This document shows positions 25,991-61,809 of a DNA stretch of 64,000 nt, one piece after another. Where the stretch lies: the NCBI GenBank assembly GCA_045543075.1, contig JAZQLZ010000025.1, positions 27,681-91,680 on the forward strand. Reading direction: 5' to 3'. Made by a program: the position numbers and the translations under genes. Origin of the DNA: Acutalibacteraceae bacterium. GTDB taxonomy: Bacteria > Bacillota > Clostridia > Oscillospirales > Acutalibacteraceae. Position 1 is the first letter of the stretch; each line of letters begins with the position of its first letter. Below the pieces are notes generated by a model that saw only the letters and a program-made list of their open reading frames with translations, was not told the origin of the DNA and made no database searches.

Positions 25991-26028
25991 GAGTGGCTCA
26001 GGTTAACTGAGCCACTCGTTTTTGTTTT
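25991..26028. terminator. Bidirectional intrinsic terminator
   Basis: GAGTGGCTCAG/CTGAGCCACTC 11-bp stem (25991-26017), followed by GTTTTTGTTTT on plus and by TATATTTTTGTTTTT on minus. Confidence 0.8.
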
Positions 26029-26030
26029 AT

Positions 26031-26207
26031 ACCCCGCCGTGCCGGATGCGATAATAGTAACCTGCTCTCAGCAGGTGGGTGTCCTCTCTACGGGTTCACG
26101 CTCCCTTCGTCCGTTAAAAACGGGAGGTCTGCAATCCGCCGCGGAAGTTGGACTCCCTTTTAATTGTCATAGGGTTAGTATTAGTCGCATTTATCGAACA
26201 CCGCAGG
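26031..26207 (-). ncRNA. GC-rich structured small RNA, 6S (SsrS)-like architecture
   Basis: Local GC is far above the flanks. A long imperfect closing helix pairs 26034-26062 with 26173-26207, about 27 bp. Three positions are G-U on the minus strand but C-A on plus, which sets the strand. There are A/U-rich 5' bubble, 3' bubble mini-hairpin CCUGCUGAGAGCAGG and an internal stem GGGAGUCC/GGACACCC. It ends at the bidirectional terminator. No SRP, RNase P or tmRNA signature motifs. Confidence 0.5.
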
Positions 26208-26235
26208 AATAATATTATTTGATTATATTTTATGA

Positions 26236-58632: not shown

Positions 58633-58732
58633 TTAAAACACCTCACAATTTCTTCCATTATATATAAAAAGTATTTAAAAGTCTATTTATTTTTAAATTT
58701 AATTGTGGTAATATGTCAAAGAGGTGGTTATT

Positions 58733-59656
58733 ATGAAAAAAATCAACACAGGTGTTTATCCCACAATGCTTACACCTTTTACTGATGATAATAAAATCGA
58801 TTACAACGGAGTTAAACAAATACTTGAATGGTACGAGAAGAAGGGGACGGACGGCATTTTTGCAATCTGCCAGAGCAGTGAGATTTTTTACCTTTCCTTT
58901 GAAGAAAGACTCGAGCTGCTTAAATTTGTTATGGCAAACAAGCCCGAGGGTATGTGCGTTGTAGCATCGGGACACACTTCCGATGACCTTGATGTTCAGA
59001 TTGCCGAAGCTAAAGCCTTTATAGAAACCGGTATTGATGCCTATGTTTTCATTTCAAACCGTTTTGCCAAAGAGGACGAGGACGACGATATACTTCTTAA
59101 GAATATGGAATATGTAGCAAATGCCTTACCCGAGATTCCTCTGGGTGTTTATGAGTGTCCGTATCCTTATAAGCGCGAGCTTACACCCTATGTAATGAAG
59201 AAAATGGCTGAGTCCGGCAGATATATGTTTATAAAAGACACTTGCTGTGACCTTGGTAAAATTCAGGCGAAGCTTGATGCAATCAAGGGCAGTGATATTA
59301 TGATTTTCAACGCTAACGGTGCAACCTTTGCAGAGAGTATGAGGATGGGTTGCCACGGTTATTCCGGTGTTATGGCTAACTTCCATCCCGAGCTTTACTC
59401 CCAGCTTATTGAAGCTATTGATAAGGGCGACGATGAGAAAGCAGTATTCCTTGAAAATATGGTCGGCTTTTTCTCCCTTACCGAGTGTCAGTGTTACCCC
59501 GTAAATGCCAAATACTATATGAGCCTTGACGGTGTTGACATCGGCATTATGACAAGAACAAGAAATCCCGCCGACTTATTCCCGGCACGCAAAAAAGAAA
59601 TTGAGCAAATGCACACATTTACTCAGGAAATGAAAGCTAAATATAACTTAAGATAA
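58733..59656 (+). CDS. Dihydrodipicolinate synthase / N-acetylneuraminate lyase family (class I aldolase) protein
   Basis: DapA-fold length and pattern (YPTMLTPFTDDNKIDYNGV, Schiff-base Lys context FIKDTC, YECPYP). The usual GxxGE motif is replaced by CQSSE. ATG 58733 follows GAGGTGG. Confidence 0.7.
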   Translation: MKKINTGVYPTMLTPFTDDNKIDYNGVKQILEWYEKKGTDGIFAICQSSEIFYLSFEERLELLKFVMANKPEGMCVVASGHTSDDLDVQIAEAKAFIETGIDAYVFISNRFAKEDEDDDILLKNMEYVANALPEIPLGVYECPYPYKRELTPYVMKKMAESGRYMFIKDTCCDLGKIQAKLDAIKGSDIMIFNANGATFAESMRMGCHGYSGVMANFHPELYSQLIEAIDKGDDEKAVFLENMVGFFSLTECQCYPVNAKYYMSLDGVDIGIMTRTRNPADLFPARKKEIEQMHTFTQEMKAKYNLR

Positions 59657-59950
59657 AAAAATACTGCCTGACTTTCGAGGCGCACTCCGTAAGGAAGTGC
59701 GCCTCAGTTATATTCGCCTTACGGCGAGTGATATTGCTTCGCAGTGATATTATGCTACGCATAGTGATATTGTCCTTCGGACAGTTTTAGGGCGAATATA
59801 ATATCACGAAAACCGCAAGGTTTTCATATCACTTTTGCCTTTGGGCAAAAATATCACTGCAAACGACAGTTTGCAATATCACTTTACCTGCCGAGAAAGA
59901 TATTCTTTATTTTCGGCAAATATTACCTTTCTCAAAGTATGTAACCCACT

Positions 59951-59992
59951 ATGACACTTTCACAATTCTTGTGTAAAGTGTCATTTGTTTTG
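59951..59992 (+). terminator. Plus-strand intrinsic terminator inside the hairpin block
   Basis: ATGACACTTT-CACA...TGTG-T-AAAGTGTCAT (14 bp, one bulge) followed by TTGTTTTG. Confidence 0.7.
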
Positions 59993-59995
59993 TGA

Positions 59996-60040
59996 AGATA
60001 AAAGCTGAGGGAGACAACTTCTTTACGAAGTGTCTCCCTC
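59996..60040 (-). terminator. Minus-strand intrinsic terminator after the ACT-domain gene
   Basis: GAGGGAGACA...TGTCTCCCTC (60007-60040) with inner ACTTC/GAAGT pairing, followed on minus by AGCUUUUAUCUU. Confidence 0.7.
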
Positions 60041-60059
60041 GGTCAGGCAGTTTTCTTTA

Positions 60060-60494
60060 TCAGAAATTTTCGATATCTTCCTGGTTGAGAGAGCGGATGT
60101 TATTATCTACAAGAGCTTTCGTTGCCAGAGCATCGTCATGAACTCTGAAAATCATATATGCGTGGTTTTTCTCCTTCTTACCGAGGAAGGCGTACATATA
60201 TTCAATGTTAAGTCCTTCTTCTTCAAGCACATTAAGTACTTTATTCACACCACCGGGTACATTGGGAATCGCAACACCCAAAACATTTGTAACGGAGTGA
60301 ATATAACCTGCATCTTTTAAAACTGTTGTAGCTGCGTAAACATTATCAACAATAATTCTGACAATACCGAAATCGGCAGTTTCTGCAAGGGATAATGCGC
60401 GCATATCAATATTGTTTTCAGCGAGCACTGAGGTCATAGCACTCATAGCACCGGGTTTATTTTCAACGAAAACTGAAATCTGTTTAATGCTCAT
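60060..60494 (-). CDS. ACT-domain protein
   Basis: Two ACT-like repeats (ISVFVENKPGAMSAMTSVLAENNIDM). ATG 60494 follows GGAGG; the track start 60527 overlaps paaK. Confidence 0.8.
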   Translation of the reverse strand: MSIKQISVFVENKPGAMSAMTSVLAENNIDMRALSLAETADFGIVRIIVDNVYAATTVLKDAGYIHSVTNVLGVAIPNVPGGVNKVLNVLEEEGLNIEYMYAFLGKKEKNHAYMIFRVHDDALATKALVDNNIRSLNQEDIENF

Positions 60495-60507
60495 AATATT
60501 ACCTCCG

Positions 60508-61809
60508 TTAAATTTTTCGTTTATCAATTACTCGTACTGCTTTACCTTCGCTTCTTACGATTGATTTAGGTGCAACCAATGTAACCTTAGCAGAGATACC
60601 GAGCATTGAGCGTAAGCCTTCAACAAGCTCCTTCTGTCTGCGGTTGATATCACCAACATTATCGGCGAACATTTCGGGTGTCATTTCAACCTGAACATCA
60701 AGGGTGTCGGTGTTTTTAACTCTGTCAACTATAATCTGATAGTTTGCGGAGTAGCCCTGATTAATAAGAACTGTTTCAATCTGTGAGGGGAATACATTAA
60801 CACCTCTGATAATGAGCATATCGTCGCTTCTGCCCATTGGCTTACACATTTTTACGTGTGTTCTGCCACAGGGGCAGGGCTCGTAATTAAGCATACATAT
60901 ATCCTTTGTTCTGTAACGAAGAAGGGGGAATGCCTCTTTAGTAATTGAGGTAAATACAAGCTCACCTTTTGAACCCTCGGGAAGAACCTCGCCTGTATCG
61001 GGGTCAATAATTTCAGCAATAAAGTGGTCTTCATTAATGTGCATACCACTTTGTGCAGAACACTCAAAAGCAACACCGGGTCCTGAAAGCTCAGTAAGAC
61101 CATAGATGTCATAAGCCTTTATGCCAAGGGAGTTTTCAATATCACGACGCATTTCCTCACTCCAGGCTTCTGCACCGAAGATACCTGCTTTAAGTGAGAG
61201 TTGGTCTTTGGTGATGCCCATTTCCTTCATTGATTCAGCAAGATAAGCGGCGTAAGAAGGGGTACAACAAAGGATTGAAGCCTGTAAATCCTGAATAAAC
61301 ATAATCTGTCGTTCTGTGTTACCAGATGAAACTGGAAGTGTAAGACAGCCTGCCTTGTGGCTACCGCCATGAAGTCCCATACCGCCGGTGAAAAGTCCGT
61401 AGCCGTAAGCGACGTGACAAACATCTTCGTTAGTTGCACCTGCGGCAACGAGAGCTCTTGCACAACAGTCTTCCCATAAATCCACATCGTGTTGAGTGTA
61501 GAAAGCGACAACTCTTTTACCCGTTGTGCCTGAAGTTGAGTGAATACGTACACAGTCCTTGAGGGGAGCTGCAAGAAGTCCGTAAGGATAGCCCTCACGC
61601 AAATCGTCCTTAGTAACAAAGGGGAGCTTGTGAAGGTCTTCGATACCCTTTATATCATCGGGAGTAACACCTTTATCTTCCATCTTTTTACGATAATAAG
61701 GCACATTATCCCAAACATGCTTTACCTGTTTAACAAGTCTTTCACTCTGCCAAGCTTTGATTTGTTCCTTGCTTGCGGTTTCAATTTCAGGTTGATAGTA
61801 ACGTTCCAT
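60508..61809 (-). CDS. paaK: Phenylacetate-CoA ligase family adenylate-forming enzyme
   Basis: 433 aa, AMP motif HSTSGTTGKRVV, YGLTE and PaaK-type C-terminal domain. The usual partner ACT gene lies downstream. Confidence 0.88.
   Translation of the reverse strand: MERYYQPEIETASKEQIKAWQSERLVKQVKHVWDNVPYYRKKMEDKGVTPDDIKGIEDLHKLPFVTKDDLREGYPYGLLAAPLKDCVRIHSTSGTTGKRVVAFYTQHDVDLWEDCCARALVAAGATNEDVCHVAYGYGLFTGGMGLHGGSHKAGCLTLPVSSGNTERQIMFIQDLQASILCCTPSYAAYLAESMKEMGITKDQLSLKAGIFGAEAWSEEMRRDIENSLGIKAYDIYGLTELSGPGVAFECSAQSGMHINEDHFIAEIIDPDTGEVLPEGSKGELVFTSITKEAFPLLRYRTKDICMLNYEPCPCGRTHVKMCKPMGRSDDMLIIRGVNVFPSQIETVLINQGYSANYQIIVDRVKNTDTLDVQVEMTPEMFADNVGDINRRQKELVEGLRSMLGISAKVTLVAPKSIVRSEGKAVRVIDKRKI

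Follow-up and report, generated by a model that had tools for sequence, protein, structure and literature searches.

In the 64,000-nucleotide stretch analysed here (the window), the gene-less block at 59677-60040 is probably a non-autonomous composite insertion, whose fold-back single-stranded structure is under selection and whose mechanism of movement we can only infer. As part of the same reading, the block is likely to have entered the apical loop of a terminator shared by two convergent genes, encoding a dihydrodipicolinate-synthase family protein (DHDPS) and an ACT-domain protein. Two parts would make up the block: a miniature orphan-oriT element comprising hairpin A, a spacer, a minus-strand MOBV-type oriT and hairpin B, and a 180-nt Gut-1 repeat placed directly 3' of hairpin A. 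We regard it as composite because orphan-oriT mini-elements that lack the core exist (L260, L352 and L383), with hairpin A present in them. The features of the locus are as follows.

58724-59656, plus strand: DHDPS host gene (Pfam PF00701, E 1.6e-26), outside the element
59657-59672, no strand assigned: 5' half of the host bidirectional intrinsic terminator, A-run and stem ACTGCCTGAC; an intact hairpin in the empty sites of relatives
59677-59705, plus strand: hairpin A, GAGGCGCACTCC-GTAA-GGAAGTGCGCCTC, left end of the inserted block
59705-59884, plus strand: bipartite Gut-1 core, described by our own covariance model R1
59705-59775, plus strand: part of the core that matches Rfam Gut-1 (RF01706), a full-length model match by cmscan
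59708-59718, plus strand: L1/X arm TTATATTCGCC, with two alternative partners, the local GGCG at 59723-26 (H1) and the centre arm
59791-59801, plus strand: centre arm GGCGAATATAA, partner of L1/X
59889-59917, plus strand: spacer hairpin TGCCGAGAAAGATATTCTTTATTTTCGGCA in the long-form tail, conserved in long-form copies of other genomes
59934-59992, minus strand: orphan MOBV-type oriT, RS_A-like, with an inverted repeat (59951-59984), a nick region and repeated ACTTT
60007-60040, plus strand: hairpin B, GAGGGAGACAACTTC-TTTAC-GAAGTGTCTCCCTC, right-hand end of the inserted block, in inverse orientation to hairpin A
60042-60058, no strand assigned: 3' half of the host terminator, stem GTCAGGCAGT and T-run, the right-hand bracket of the initial annotation
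60060-60527, minus strand: ACT-domain host gene (Pfam PF19571 ACT_8, E 3.7e-26), convergent with DHDPS and outside the element

A split terminator and its hairpin ladder

The outer inverted repeat of the locus pairs ACTGCCTGAC (59663-72) with GTCAGGCAGT (60042-51). The initial annotation had taken the bracket CTGCCTGAC/GTCAGGCAG as part of the element. The bracket is present as sequence, but the empty sites of relatives identify it as the split stem of the host bidirectional terminator. When the DHDPS/ACT loci of relatives were located via homologue clusters, 13 close-relative contigs (DHDPS 80-92% identical) had one plain terminator hairpin at the site and no element, and the ACT gene directly followed the site in 12 of these 13 element-free contigs, in the same gene order. 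The empty site of L242, for example, carries the intact hairpin ACAGCCTGTTCT-aataaa-AGAACAGGCTGT. Other long-form copies are flanked by locus-specific outer pairs that are terminator-like as well, with an A-run and stem on one side and a stem and T-run on the other. An ORF check of the block found no credible reading frame, as had been claimed.

The ladder of hairpins and heptamers within the block was recovered position for position and is far above chance. GTGATAT occurs at 59728, 59744 and 59764 and, in the degenerate form GTTATAT, at 59707; between each heptamer and the next lies a perfectly paired mini-hairpin. The sequence AGTGATATT is found 7 times in the window against 0.78 expected, a count reached in 0 of 100 shuffles, and the fold energy z-score is -15.4 on the plus strand and -15.1 on the minus strand. 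The exact 25-nt period noted earlier is true of the right half here but is not a family trait, with spacings of 21-26 nt and more in relatives. The hairpins at 59677-59705 and 60007-60040 are indeed related and inverted in the window sequence. Hairpin A is kept with compensatory changes in long-form copies, and hairpin B is conserved in them directly 5' of the 3' half of each local terminator stem.

The Gut-1 core and its covariation

The initial annotation knew of no described RNA family with this layout, yet the left half of the ladder is Rfam Gut-1, which it matches with 66.0 bits (E 5e-13), above the gathering score of 50; 17 relatives also match Gut-1 at 51-88 bits. The cmscan alignment covers H1-H3 and four heptamers, which read GUGAUAU or GUUAUAU here. 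Along the core, the L1 heptamer and X arm are followed by H1, three units of GTGATAT plus hairpin, the centre GGCGAATATAA and the right array, in which ATATCAC at 59801, 59826, 59851 and 59876 encloses three 18-nt hairpins. Model R1 gives the core 183.7 bits on the plus strand and 59.3 on the minus, and finds a single core copy in the 64-kb window.

Gut-1 as known from Rfam shares with this left half its three to four short covarying hairpins, its GUGAAAU-like heptamer spacers and its origin in mammalian gut Clostridia. The two-array layout is already visible in the flanks of two original seed sequences, BAAZ01000095 and BAAZ01025322, and some seed members (BAAY01013587) have no right array. 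The Rfam model differs in being 77 nt long and in covering neither the centre arm nor the complementary right array, and its heptamer is GUGAAAU-like where that of the window is GUGAUAU. In Rfam, Gut-1 is an sRNA with no assigned function, from the human gut only, whereas here it behaves as a dispersed insertion in human and ruminant gut MAGs. On the strength of covariation, Weinberg et al. rated Gut-1 as certainly RNA (2010, PMC2864571).

That the stems vary and nevertheless stay paired is confirmed across 105 copies. Both-side changes occur at every H2-H7 pair, and these hairpins hold 798 compensated cells against 226 in shuffles, with 0 of 500 shuffles reaching 798. The reverse complementarity of the two heptamer sets is likewise meaningful, as it is preserved through seven different heptamer pairs in sister subfamilies, which also have seven complementary X arms; two subfamilies can occur on one contig. 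The alternative 11-bp pairing TTATATTCGCC/GGCGAATATAA is present and covaries. Paired in 97.9% of cells (105 copies), this L1:centre helix is the best-conserved long-range pairing, and the X arm changes in sequence between subfamilies with its complementarity retained. The fold with L1:centre is energetically better in 32 of 43 copies, and a few U.G changes preserve the pairing on the plus strand only.

The nested heptamer pairings fared less well. Three of the four are perfect in the window, but they are a minority state in the family, and the proposed rod of three linker-free four-way junctions is not conserved. Its outer two rungs are usually mismatched and uncompensated even in the GTGATAT subfamily to which the window belongs, where the third rung base pair is paired in 5 of 102 copies for L1:R4, 36 of 103 for L2:R3, 71 of 105 for L3:R2 and 85 of 104 for L4:R1. 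A search for compensation of the rung mismatches within this subfamily found none. The left and right arrays also differ in constraint, with G/T variation at position 3 confined to the left.

The hairpins are closed by a C-G pair in 181 of 195 cases. Their triloops are GNA in 56 cases and TNC in none, and their tetraloops are GNRA (29) or GNYA (25). The mini-hairpin DNA GCGNAGC/GCGNNAGC is much weaker as RNA (PMC13037366). The hairpins of the element match this mini-hairpin DNA and are of a DNA type. The stable loop type changes strand at the centre, so that a single transferred strand offers no simple explanation of it. A promoter consensus scan returned 5 hits against 2.8±1.9 expected, which is chance level, and no promoter stands out. 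A promoter at the centre (TATAAT, with a TG-extended -10 on the other strand) was rejected on this result and because the motif is missing in other subfamilies. Kissing loops between left (UNC) and right (GNA) hairpins were also discarded, as pairwise complementarity between them is absent in the window.

Dispersal, insertion sites and the orphan oriT

The core belongs to a dispersed family. Our genome scan yielded more than 120 copies among the matches listed, in 108 genomes and more than 100 genomic contexts, and the carriers among these matches are all Oscillospirales/Clostridia MAGs; about 15 additional copies lie within the same 8-kb blocks. A strict search for arrays of identical heptamers was too stringent for cataloguing the subfamilies, and a looser one for three heptamers in IMG/VR gave unrelated tandem repeats almost exclusively, plus one true copy (L039). 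Contig ends are enriched, at 36 of 125 copies against 5.5 expected. Cores 90-98% identical occur in different species with unrelated flanks (94.5% between the window and L146). Pairs within one genome are 51-80% identical, one pair reaching 93%, a weak test with at most three copies sampled per genome; judged by sequence, this divergence suggests an old paralogous family more than it does a recent burst of MITEs. With all related sequences coming from MAGs, the number of copies per genome is an estimate. Set against a plain MITE, the possibility raised in the initial annotation, the family is multi-copy and present or absent between close relatives, but a target-site duplication was not found and copies within a genome are not near-identical.

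Insertion is polymorphic at a second locus as well. Downstream of ppdK, L215, L384, L136 and L393 carry the element and 8 contigs (PpdK 93% identical) lack it, and the insertion points there differ between copies. Most copies are of a short form without the oriT, chromosomal, and placed after tRNA or gene terminators, where the core begins right after the T-run of an intact terminator. Among 104 copies, 34 begin 30-40 nt past a tRNA or tmRNA on the same strand, and 1 copy has any other tRNA configuration; the gene upstream runs in the same direction in 53 cases and in the opposite one in 18.

Comparison of filled and empty sites gave no clear target-site duplication, only a split hairpin loop. 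The 9-nt repeat AAGATAAAA (59650/59995) was rejected as a duplication because its right copy belongs to the conserved element, and the X' direct repeats because they measure anywhere from 5 to 7 nt depending on the subfamily, which makes a fixed length unlikely. As a putative terminal repeat, only a 9-bp imperfect match with one mismatch could be defined, between the core ends AGTTATATT and AATATCACT. When ORFs within ±2.5 kb of 125 copies were clustered, no protein family exceeded 6 of 125; with no enriched neighbour family, readings as a toxin-antitoxin system, a retron, a CRISPR-like or a transposase-adjacent element were dropped. No transposase, recombinase or relaxase gene was linked to any copy, by ORF neighbours of the 125 copies and, for the relaxase, by tblastn.

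The segment 59951-59992, first read as the block's own plus-strand terminator, is the inverted repeat of a MOBV oriT on the minus strand. The repeat at 59951-59984 is followed by AGTGGG/TT and two copies of ACTTT, with a predicted nick region ATAGTGGG/TTACATAC and a predicted minus-strand nick between 59945 and 59944. By the rules for the pMV158 oriT (PMC5863519), an inverted repeat precedes a G/T nick by a few nucleotides, with the repeated motif around it, and the layout of 59934-59992 fits these rules. A 28-nt stretch matches pD610-HI2 at 28 of 28 positions, 66 nt upstream of its Mob_Pre gene, and is also found in Kurthia pND2a. Among 115 informative metagenome loci with an exact 21-mer of the site, 93 have a Mob_Pre gene in divergent orientation no more than 200 nt away. 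The 21-mer also adjoins Mob_Pre ORFs in IMG/VR contigs; the Mob_Pre assignment was checked against Pfam (PF01076, E 1e-52). The site thus resembles the MOBV1 oriT, or RS_A, of pMV158 and of Tn4451-type units in its inverted repeat, placed a few nucleotides before a G/T nick motif, in its repeated ACTTT and in its 28-nt identity to sites 23-70 nt upstream of Mob_Pre, and the nicked strand would encode mob. It differs in being relaxase-less and in lying in a gene-less block of ~364 nt within a chromosomal terminator, with a nick site predicted from sequence. A tblastn search with two Mob_Pre proteins found nothing in the window or in 120 genome blocks. Of 120 metagenome loci carrying the oriT, a single one also has a Gut-1 core. 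Faecalibacterium, which belongs to the same order, is rich in MOBV1 mobilizable elements (PMC12084326).

Alternative readings, related systems and implications

On the insertion-element reading, the Gut-1 core would be a dispersed, polar, non-autonomous element of gut Oscillospirales, residing beside GC-rich hairpins that are usually terminators and often those of tRNA genes. Its unit would be a conserved heptamer plus a short variable hairpin, C-G closed and with a GNA or GNNA loop, and with about four units on one strand and four on the other, a single strand could fold back on itself. Selection would act on the fold, namely on the hairpins, the complementarity of left and right heptamers and a three-part X-X'-X' switch. 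The likeliest reason may be handling as single-stranded nucleic acid during spread, or a compactness that makes the element tolerable at a terminator. The analysis establishes that the core is a Gut-1 member, that insertion is polymorphic, how the target is arranged, that the structure covaries and what the oriT is; we infer a single-stranded DNA intermediate and any part played by a relaxase acting in trans. A further-reaching proposal, which we hold to be distinctly doubtful as a whole, is that Gut-1 is no sRNA gene but an unrecognised class of mobile DNA, free of proteins and defined by its structure, which targets terminator hairpins and moves as a single folded strand. The long form would then be coupled to an orphan MOBV oriT, and resident relaxases from integrative mobilizable elements would transfer it between cells and insert it by strand transfer into extruded hairpin loops. 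SSB-resistant mini-hairpin arrays with self-complementary linkers would be its functional core, serving folding, priming or both.

Gut-1 could instead be a functional structured sRNA, a plus-strand 3' extension of the upstream gene or tRNA with mobility secondary, folded into a four-way-junction rod or an L1:centre multiloop in which the heptamers are pairing or protein-binding sites. The long-term compensation in six hairpins and the fixed orientation to upstream genes and tRNAs would indeed fit a host-beneficial RNA, as would the standing of Gut-1 as an RNA class in Rfam and in Weinberg et al. and the U.G changes that hold L1:centre on the plus strand only. The mutually exclusive X-X'-X' helices recall RNA switches, and heptamer complementarity across seven subfamilies coexisting in one genome favours nucleic-acid pairing over one cognate protein. 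We nevertheless consider an sRNA unlikely. G.U pairs in the stems (36) are about as common as A.C (30) and so are not in excess, the C-G-closed GNA/GNNA loops do not have the purine preference of RNA GNRA loops, and the entire left array on the plus strand presents the complementary UNC loops. Most copies leave the outer two rungs mismatched without compensation, promoters are no better than chance, and a short-form core that follows the T-run of an intact terminator would be transcribed by read-through only. Presence or absence between close relatives at two loci also speaks against this account.

A single-strand initiation or origin signal (ssi, sso or Frpo-like), whose SSB-resistant mini-hairpins recruit primase or RNA polymerase so that complementary-strand synthesis starts in the recipient, would account for the polarity and the pronounced structure that the element shares with ssos. 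In the long form the core falls in the leading ~240 nt of the predicted T-strand, a region that holds the mob gene in autonomous elements, and the abundance of MOBV1 mobilizable elements in Faecalibacterium (PMC12084326) agrees with such a role. Motifs of mini-hairpin DNA occur at the G4 and ssiA priming sites, and SSB binds them poorly (PMC13037366). However, most copies are chromosomal short forms without an oriT, the core is rare at metagenome oriT loci and core-less mini-elements exist, a plasmid or rolling-circle context was looked for and not found, and on the predicted T-strand the stable loop type is limited to half of the hairpins; we judge this reading very unlikely. A double-stranded protein-binding array appears highly improbable. 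In such an array, the 9-bp AGTGATATT in two opposed arrays would be bound by a host or element protein and would be a roadblock, an insulator or a gyrase or nucleoid site as in REP/BIME, and the palindromic spacers would be incidental. Two arrays that are inverted copies of one site, the use of the same heptamer in all units of one element and a BIME-like location after highly transcribed genes and between convergent genes speak for it. The spacing, however, is irregular (16-26 bp) with helical phasing absent, the two arrays are constrained differently at position 3, and seven heptamer types, sometimes on one contig, would need as many proteins. A duplex model also leaves the six covarying hairpins and the X-X'-X' arms unexplained.

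Among known repeats, MITEs and extragenic repeats such as REP/BIME/REPIN, BOX, Correia and ERIC are similar in being short, non-coding, multi-copy, intergenic, hairpin-rich and modular; they too lie at gene ends, break assemblies and are present or absent between relatives. In REP the palindromes are conserved and the linkers vary, whereas here the opposite holds. A conserved palindromic unit repeated through the genome, the mark of REP/BIME, is not seen, as the hairpins comprise 384 distinct sequences among 692. The element also shows no target-site duplication, and copies from the same genome have diverged and belong to subfamilies, each with its own internally complementary heptamers. We know of no cognate transposase for it. 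A CRISPR array, with identical direct repeats of at least 23 nt, unique spacers and cas genes or a leader, was excluded, since the repeats are 7-9 nt in both orientations and the would-be spacers are hairpins. Class C group II introns and IS elements that insert in REP likewise occupy an intrinsic terminator hairpin or the position directly 3' of it, at a fixed polarity, but the element is ~180 nt and without ribozyme domains, reverse transcriptase or transposase. The sso, ssi and Frpo sites of plasmids and ssDNA phages resemble it in being orientation-specific and strongly folded, with C-GNA-G mini-hairpin loops, and in the oriT beside the long form. It differs from them in being chromosomal, multi-copy and mostly oriT-less, with RS_B and CS-6 motifs absent, and a priming role would be by analogy. 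The consensus sequences of integron attC, dif/Xer, DnaA-box, Chi and RSS do not fit.

Gut-1 has stood in Rfam since 2010 as an RNA motif without organism, context or function. It now gains hosts, namely Oscillospirales of the human and ruminant gut, a complete architecture that exceeds the Rfam model more than twofold in length, and a behaviour, insertion beside or inside intrinsic terminators and often right behind tRNA genes. Its loci are probably repeats that break MAG assemblies rather than sRNA genes. Covariation here marks a mobile DNA family, in which linkers, arms and stems change in concert between subfamilies, and this is a caution for covariation screens: a functional RNA is not proven by covariation alone. 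For these bacteria, terminators are insertion targets, and the presence of gene-less, oriT-bearing mini-elements in the chromosomes of a MOBV1-rich clade bears on how seemingly non-mobile gut DNA may be mobilised.

The repeat ladder and its Gut-1 identity

The ~400 nt between a dihydrodipicolinate-synthase (DHDPS)-family gene and a convergent ACT-domain gene hold no credible ORF, as the initial annotation had stated, and the heptamers and mini-hairpins all lie where it placed them.

59654-59656, plus strand: stop codon of the DHDPS-family gene (Pfam PF00701)
59707, plus strand: left heptamer GTTATAT
59728, 59744 and 59764, plus strand: left heptamers GTGATAT
59801, 59826, 59851 and 59876, plus strand: right heptamers ATATCAC
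60060-60062: stop codon of the convergent ACT-domain gene (PF19571)

Perfectly paired mini-hairpins separate successive heptamers. The window has 7 occurrences of AGTGATATT where 0.78 would be expected, and on both strands the fold of the region is 15 standard deviations more stable than that of shuffled sequences. The initial annotation knew of no described RNA family with this layout, but the left half (59705-59775, plus strand) scores 66 bits against Rfam Gut-1 (RF01706; gathering score 50, cmscan), which demonstrates membership of a known family. The right half gives a weak reverse Gut-1 match of 26 bits. Gut-1 was first described by Weinberg et al. in 2010 from human-gut metagenomes only and graded 'RNA: Y', not cis-regulatory and without function (PMC2864571). 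The two-array layout is already visible in the flanks of BAAZ01000095 and BAAZ01025322 in their Stockholm file, so the 77-nt Rfam model spans under half of the core that is conserved; in BAAY01013587 of the same file the right array is absent. Elsewhere, the window carries an unrelated 6S/SsrS RNA gene (26027-26212, minus strand; RF00013, 75.7 bits; gathering score 46.4).

Counting copies in relatives, as the initial annotation had proposed, gave at least 120 loci in at least 108 genomes, in diverse contexts. The scan pattern was the centre plus right heptamers R1 and R2, both fixed, so these two positions are biased. The matches listed are all Clostridia/Oscillospirales metagenome-assembled genomes (MAGs) from human and ruminant guts; every relative is a MAG or metagenome contig, and the counts are lower bounds. 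The commonest layout has four left and four right heptamers. With a covariance model of 176 positions built in this analysis, the window holds exactly one copy. Forward copies score 110-198 bits and the same loci on the reverse strand 30-85 bits; the element is therefore pseudo-symmetric but polar.

Insertion sites and dispersal

Relatives with a DHDPS 80-92% identical keep the gene order of the window (507-aa protein, GNAT, DHDPS convergent with ACT, AMP-binding enzyme, GH95). Their DHDPS and ACT stop codons are 40-55 nt apart, separated by a single plain A-run/stem/T-run hairpin. This empty site is found in 13 contigs, among which L246 is an exception, having a different sequence beyond the hairpin and no called ACT gene. 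The window's homologous stem, ACTGCCTGAC/GTCAGGCAGT, is interrupted by positions 59673-60041. Other long-form copies, in which hairpins A and B and an oriT accompany the core, are arranged alike, each with a stem particular to its locus. The block is an insertion, and the bracket that the initial annotation had placed around it is the host terminator, intact as a single hairpin in the 13 contigs. Without the rest of the block, the core is likewise an indel, as seen downstream of ppdK, where it follows the host terminator in contigs L215 and L384, precedes it in L136 and belongs to a different subfamily in L393; the site is empty in eight contigs with a PpdK 93% identical. Insertion polymorphism is demonstrated at these two loci.

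The copies demonstrably target terminators and hairpins with a defined polarity: 34 of 104 start 30-40 nt past where a tRNA or tmRNA on the same strand ends, just beyond its terminator, and a single copy has any other tRNA configuration. Among upstream protein genes, 53 point in the same direction as the copy and 18 in the opposite one. The neighbourhood of the copies shows no enriched protein family (maximum 6/125), 36 of 125 copies lie within 300 nt of a contig end against 5.5 expected, and ~15 additional copies occur inside the same 8-kb blocks. On these grounds the core is a dispersed repeat, with perhaps tens of copies per genome as an estimate only. Different species share cores 90-98% identical in unrelated flanks; copies sampled from a single genome share only 51-80% identity.

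Several contexts were observed at individual loci. After a tRNA-Tyr gene, L206 (5080-5920, minus strand) has two tandem elements of different subfamilies, each with a tRNA 3'-end copy (GAATCCACCCGCTCCCACCA) before it and an inverted T-arm-like GGTGGATTCGAACCAC after it, as if insertion at the 3' end of a tRNA had taken place more than once. L123 and L169 also have copies with similar inverted T-arm sequences on the 3' side. In L128, L160, L168, L186 and L219, a conserved ~50-nt AAAGAAAATCCTCGGTTTTC...CAGTTCTTTTTCGGACACGAATGCCA with a CCA end like a tRNA 3' end stands directly before terminator and core; neither ARAGORN nor Rfam recognizes it. After many short-form copies (core alone) comes a conserved promoter-like module, TTGCNC-17-TATAAT, lying in the 60-90 nt that follow the last ATATCAC in L125, L139, L160 (two copies), L168, L186, L171 and L134. 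It contains CCACCGC, which could pair with the Shine-Dalgarno-like GGCGGTG, and AGGCGGTGAT-N4-ATG comes after it. Because the proteins downstream differ between copies, the module may be carried along by the element. Copies are also present on two contigs filed as phage or viral sequence (MT835815.1, L254 6001-6119; IMG/VR L039 1478-1532), which may be misclassified bacterial fragments.

Conserved pairing and hairpin chemistry

Across 105 forward copies, core hairpins H2-H7 have both sides changed at every base pair, with 92-99% of cells paired. Compensated cells number 798 against 226 in shuffles (0 of 500 shuffles reach 798), in line with the selection on structure claimed initially. The alternative 11-bp pairing that had been suggested between the first left heptamer region and the centre (L1:centre) is likewise borne out, being paired at 97.9% in these copies. 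The nested heptamer pairings, or rungs, show zero compensation within the window's subfamily, where left heptamers are often GTTATAT and the right ones still ATATCAC. The third pair of the rung is intact in 5/102 copies for L1:R4, 36/103 for L2:R3, 71/105 for L3:R2 and 85/104 for L4:R1. By fold energy, L1:centre is favoured over the four-rung ladder in 32 of 43 copies, though not in the window.

Lower-scoring copies in the same contigs are sister subfamilies that keep the full architecture with different sequences, and complementarity always holds (left/right heptamers GTGATAT/ATATCAC, GTGAAAT/ATTTCAC, ATGAAAT/ATTTCAT, GCGATAT/ATATCGC, GTGATGT/ACATCAC, ATGATGT/ACATCAT, GCTAAAT/ATTTAGC). The arm at 59708-59718 has seven complementary versions, matching both its local (H1) and its distal (centre) partner. 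Heptamer complementarity is therefore real at the family level, and covariation in stems, arms and heptamer sets is demonstrated, as are the extended core architecture and its subfamilies. The rod of four-way junctions that the initial annotation drew from this complementarity is not a conserved structure; homologues covary in the hairpins and L1:centre but not in the rungs inside the GTGATAT subfamily. Since one contig can hold two subfamilies, self-pairing of nucleic acid is a more plausible explanation than a single cognate protein that binds the DNA.

Further apparent subfamilies with other linkers, such as ATGAAGC, GTTCTAT and TATCCATTGCGAAAGCAATGG-type units, lie downstream of tRNA terminators in L174, L221, L230, L161 and L168. 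A recurrent hairpin, TGCGGAACGAAGTGGAGCA, is the first of the right array in L132, L138, L158, L174 and L127; its conserved non-Watson-Crick interior (GGAAC/GUGGA) suggests a specific internal-loop motif, not a plain stem.

When each hairpin unit is read on the strand where the heptamer is ATATCAC, the loop closing pair is 5'C-G3' in 181 of 195. Among triloops, 56 are GNA and none is TNC; among tetraloops, 29 are GNRA and 25 GNYA. The favoured strand of the loop type flips at the centre. Among ~1,790 stem pairs, G.U (36) is no commoner than A.C (30). These statistics are the signature of 'mini-hairpin DNA' (GCGNAGC/GCGNNAGC, any N), which has extraordinary stability in DNA but far less in RNA, is found at ssDNA priming sites and is poorly bound by SSB (PMC13037366). 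The loop chemistry argues for DNA-level hairpins or both-strand selection, with proof of neither. A functional RNA, the main rival, would fit the polarity, the switch-like arms and the long-term compensatory change. However, the wobble and loop statistics, the placement of copies behind intact terminators and the pattern of gain and loss all speak against it, and we consider it unlikely.

An orphan oriT and the spread of the element

The tail of the block (59927-59985) matches plasmids. Its minus-strand GAAAGTGTCATAGTGGGTTACATACTTT is identical to a site that a Tn4451-like unit of K. pneumoniae pD610-HI2 carries 66 nt upstream of its Mob_Pre gene (PF01076), and is also present in Kurthia pND2a. 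The exact 21-mer adjoins Mob_Pre ORFs in IMG/VR contigs. Of the 115 informative metagenome loci among the matches listed, 93 have a divergent Mob_Pre gene within 200 nt of it. Like the pMV158 oriT (PMC5863519), the window site has an inverted repeat (59951-59984) and then AGTGGG/TT, and its ACTTT motif is repeated. These matches demonstrate oriT identity at the sequence level. No relaxase gene was found in the window or in 120 genome blocks, and what had been annotated as the block's own plus-strand terminator is best read as a minus-strand orphan oriT.

Core-less mini-elements (hairpin A, ~90 nt, oriT) exist in L260, L352 and L383, and the core is present at 1 of 120 metagenome oriT loci among the matches listed. 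The block in the window is therefore a composite, an orphan-oriT mini-element that carries the Gut-1 core immediately 3' of hairpin A, just as short forms are placed behind terminators. Metagenomes also contain orphan MOBV oriTs of another kind (L265, L274, L284, L293, L327, L331, L341, L343, L344 and L369), in which the same 21-mer comes after a conserved hairpin, AAGGGCAAGACAAACC...GGTCTGTCTTGCCCTT. These lie downstream of unrelated genes and have neither a Mob_Pre gene nor a Gut-1 core.

In Faecalibacterium, MOBV1 mobilizable elements are abundant, at 6-10 per genome (PMC12084326), which makes trans-acting relaxases plausible in Oscillospirales, the same order. We suggest that the Gut-1 element would spread as a single strand, or would have to fold as one, and that a relaxase may take part in its spread.
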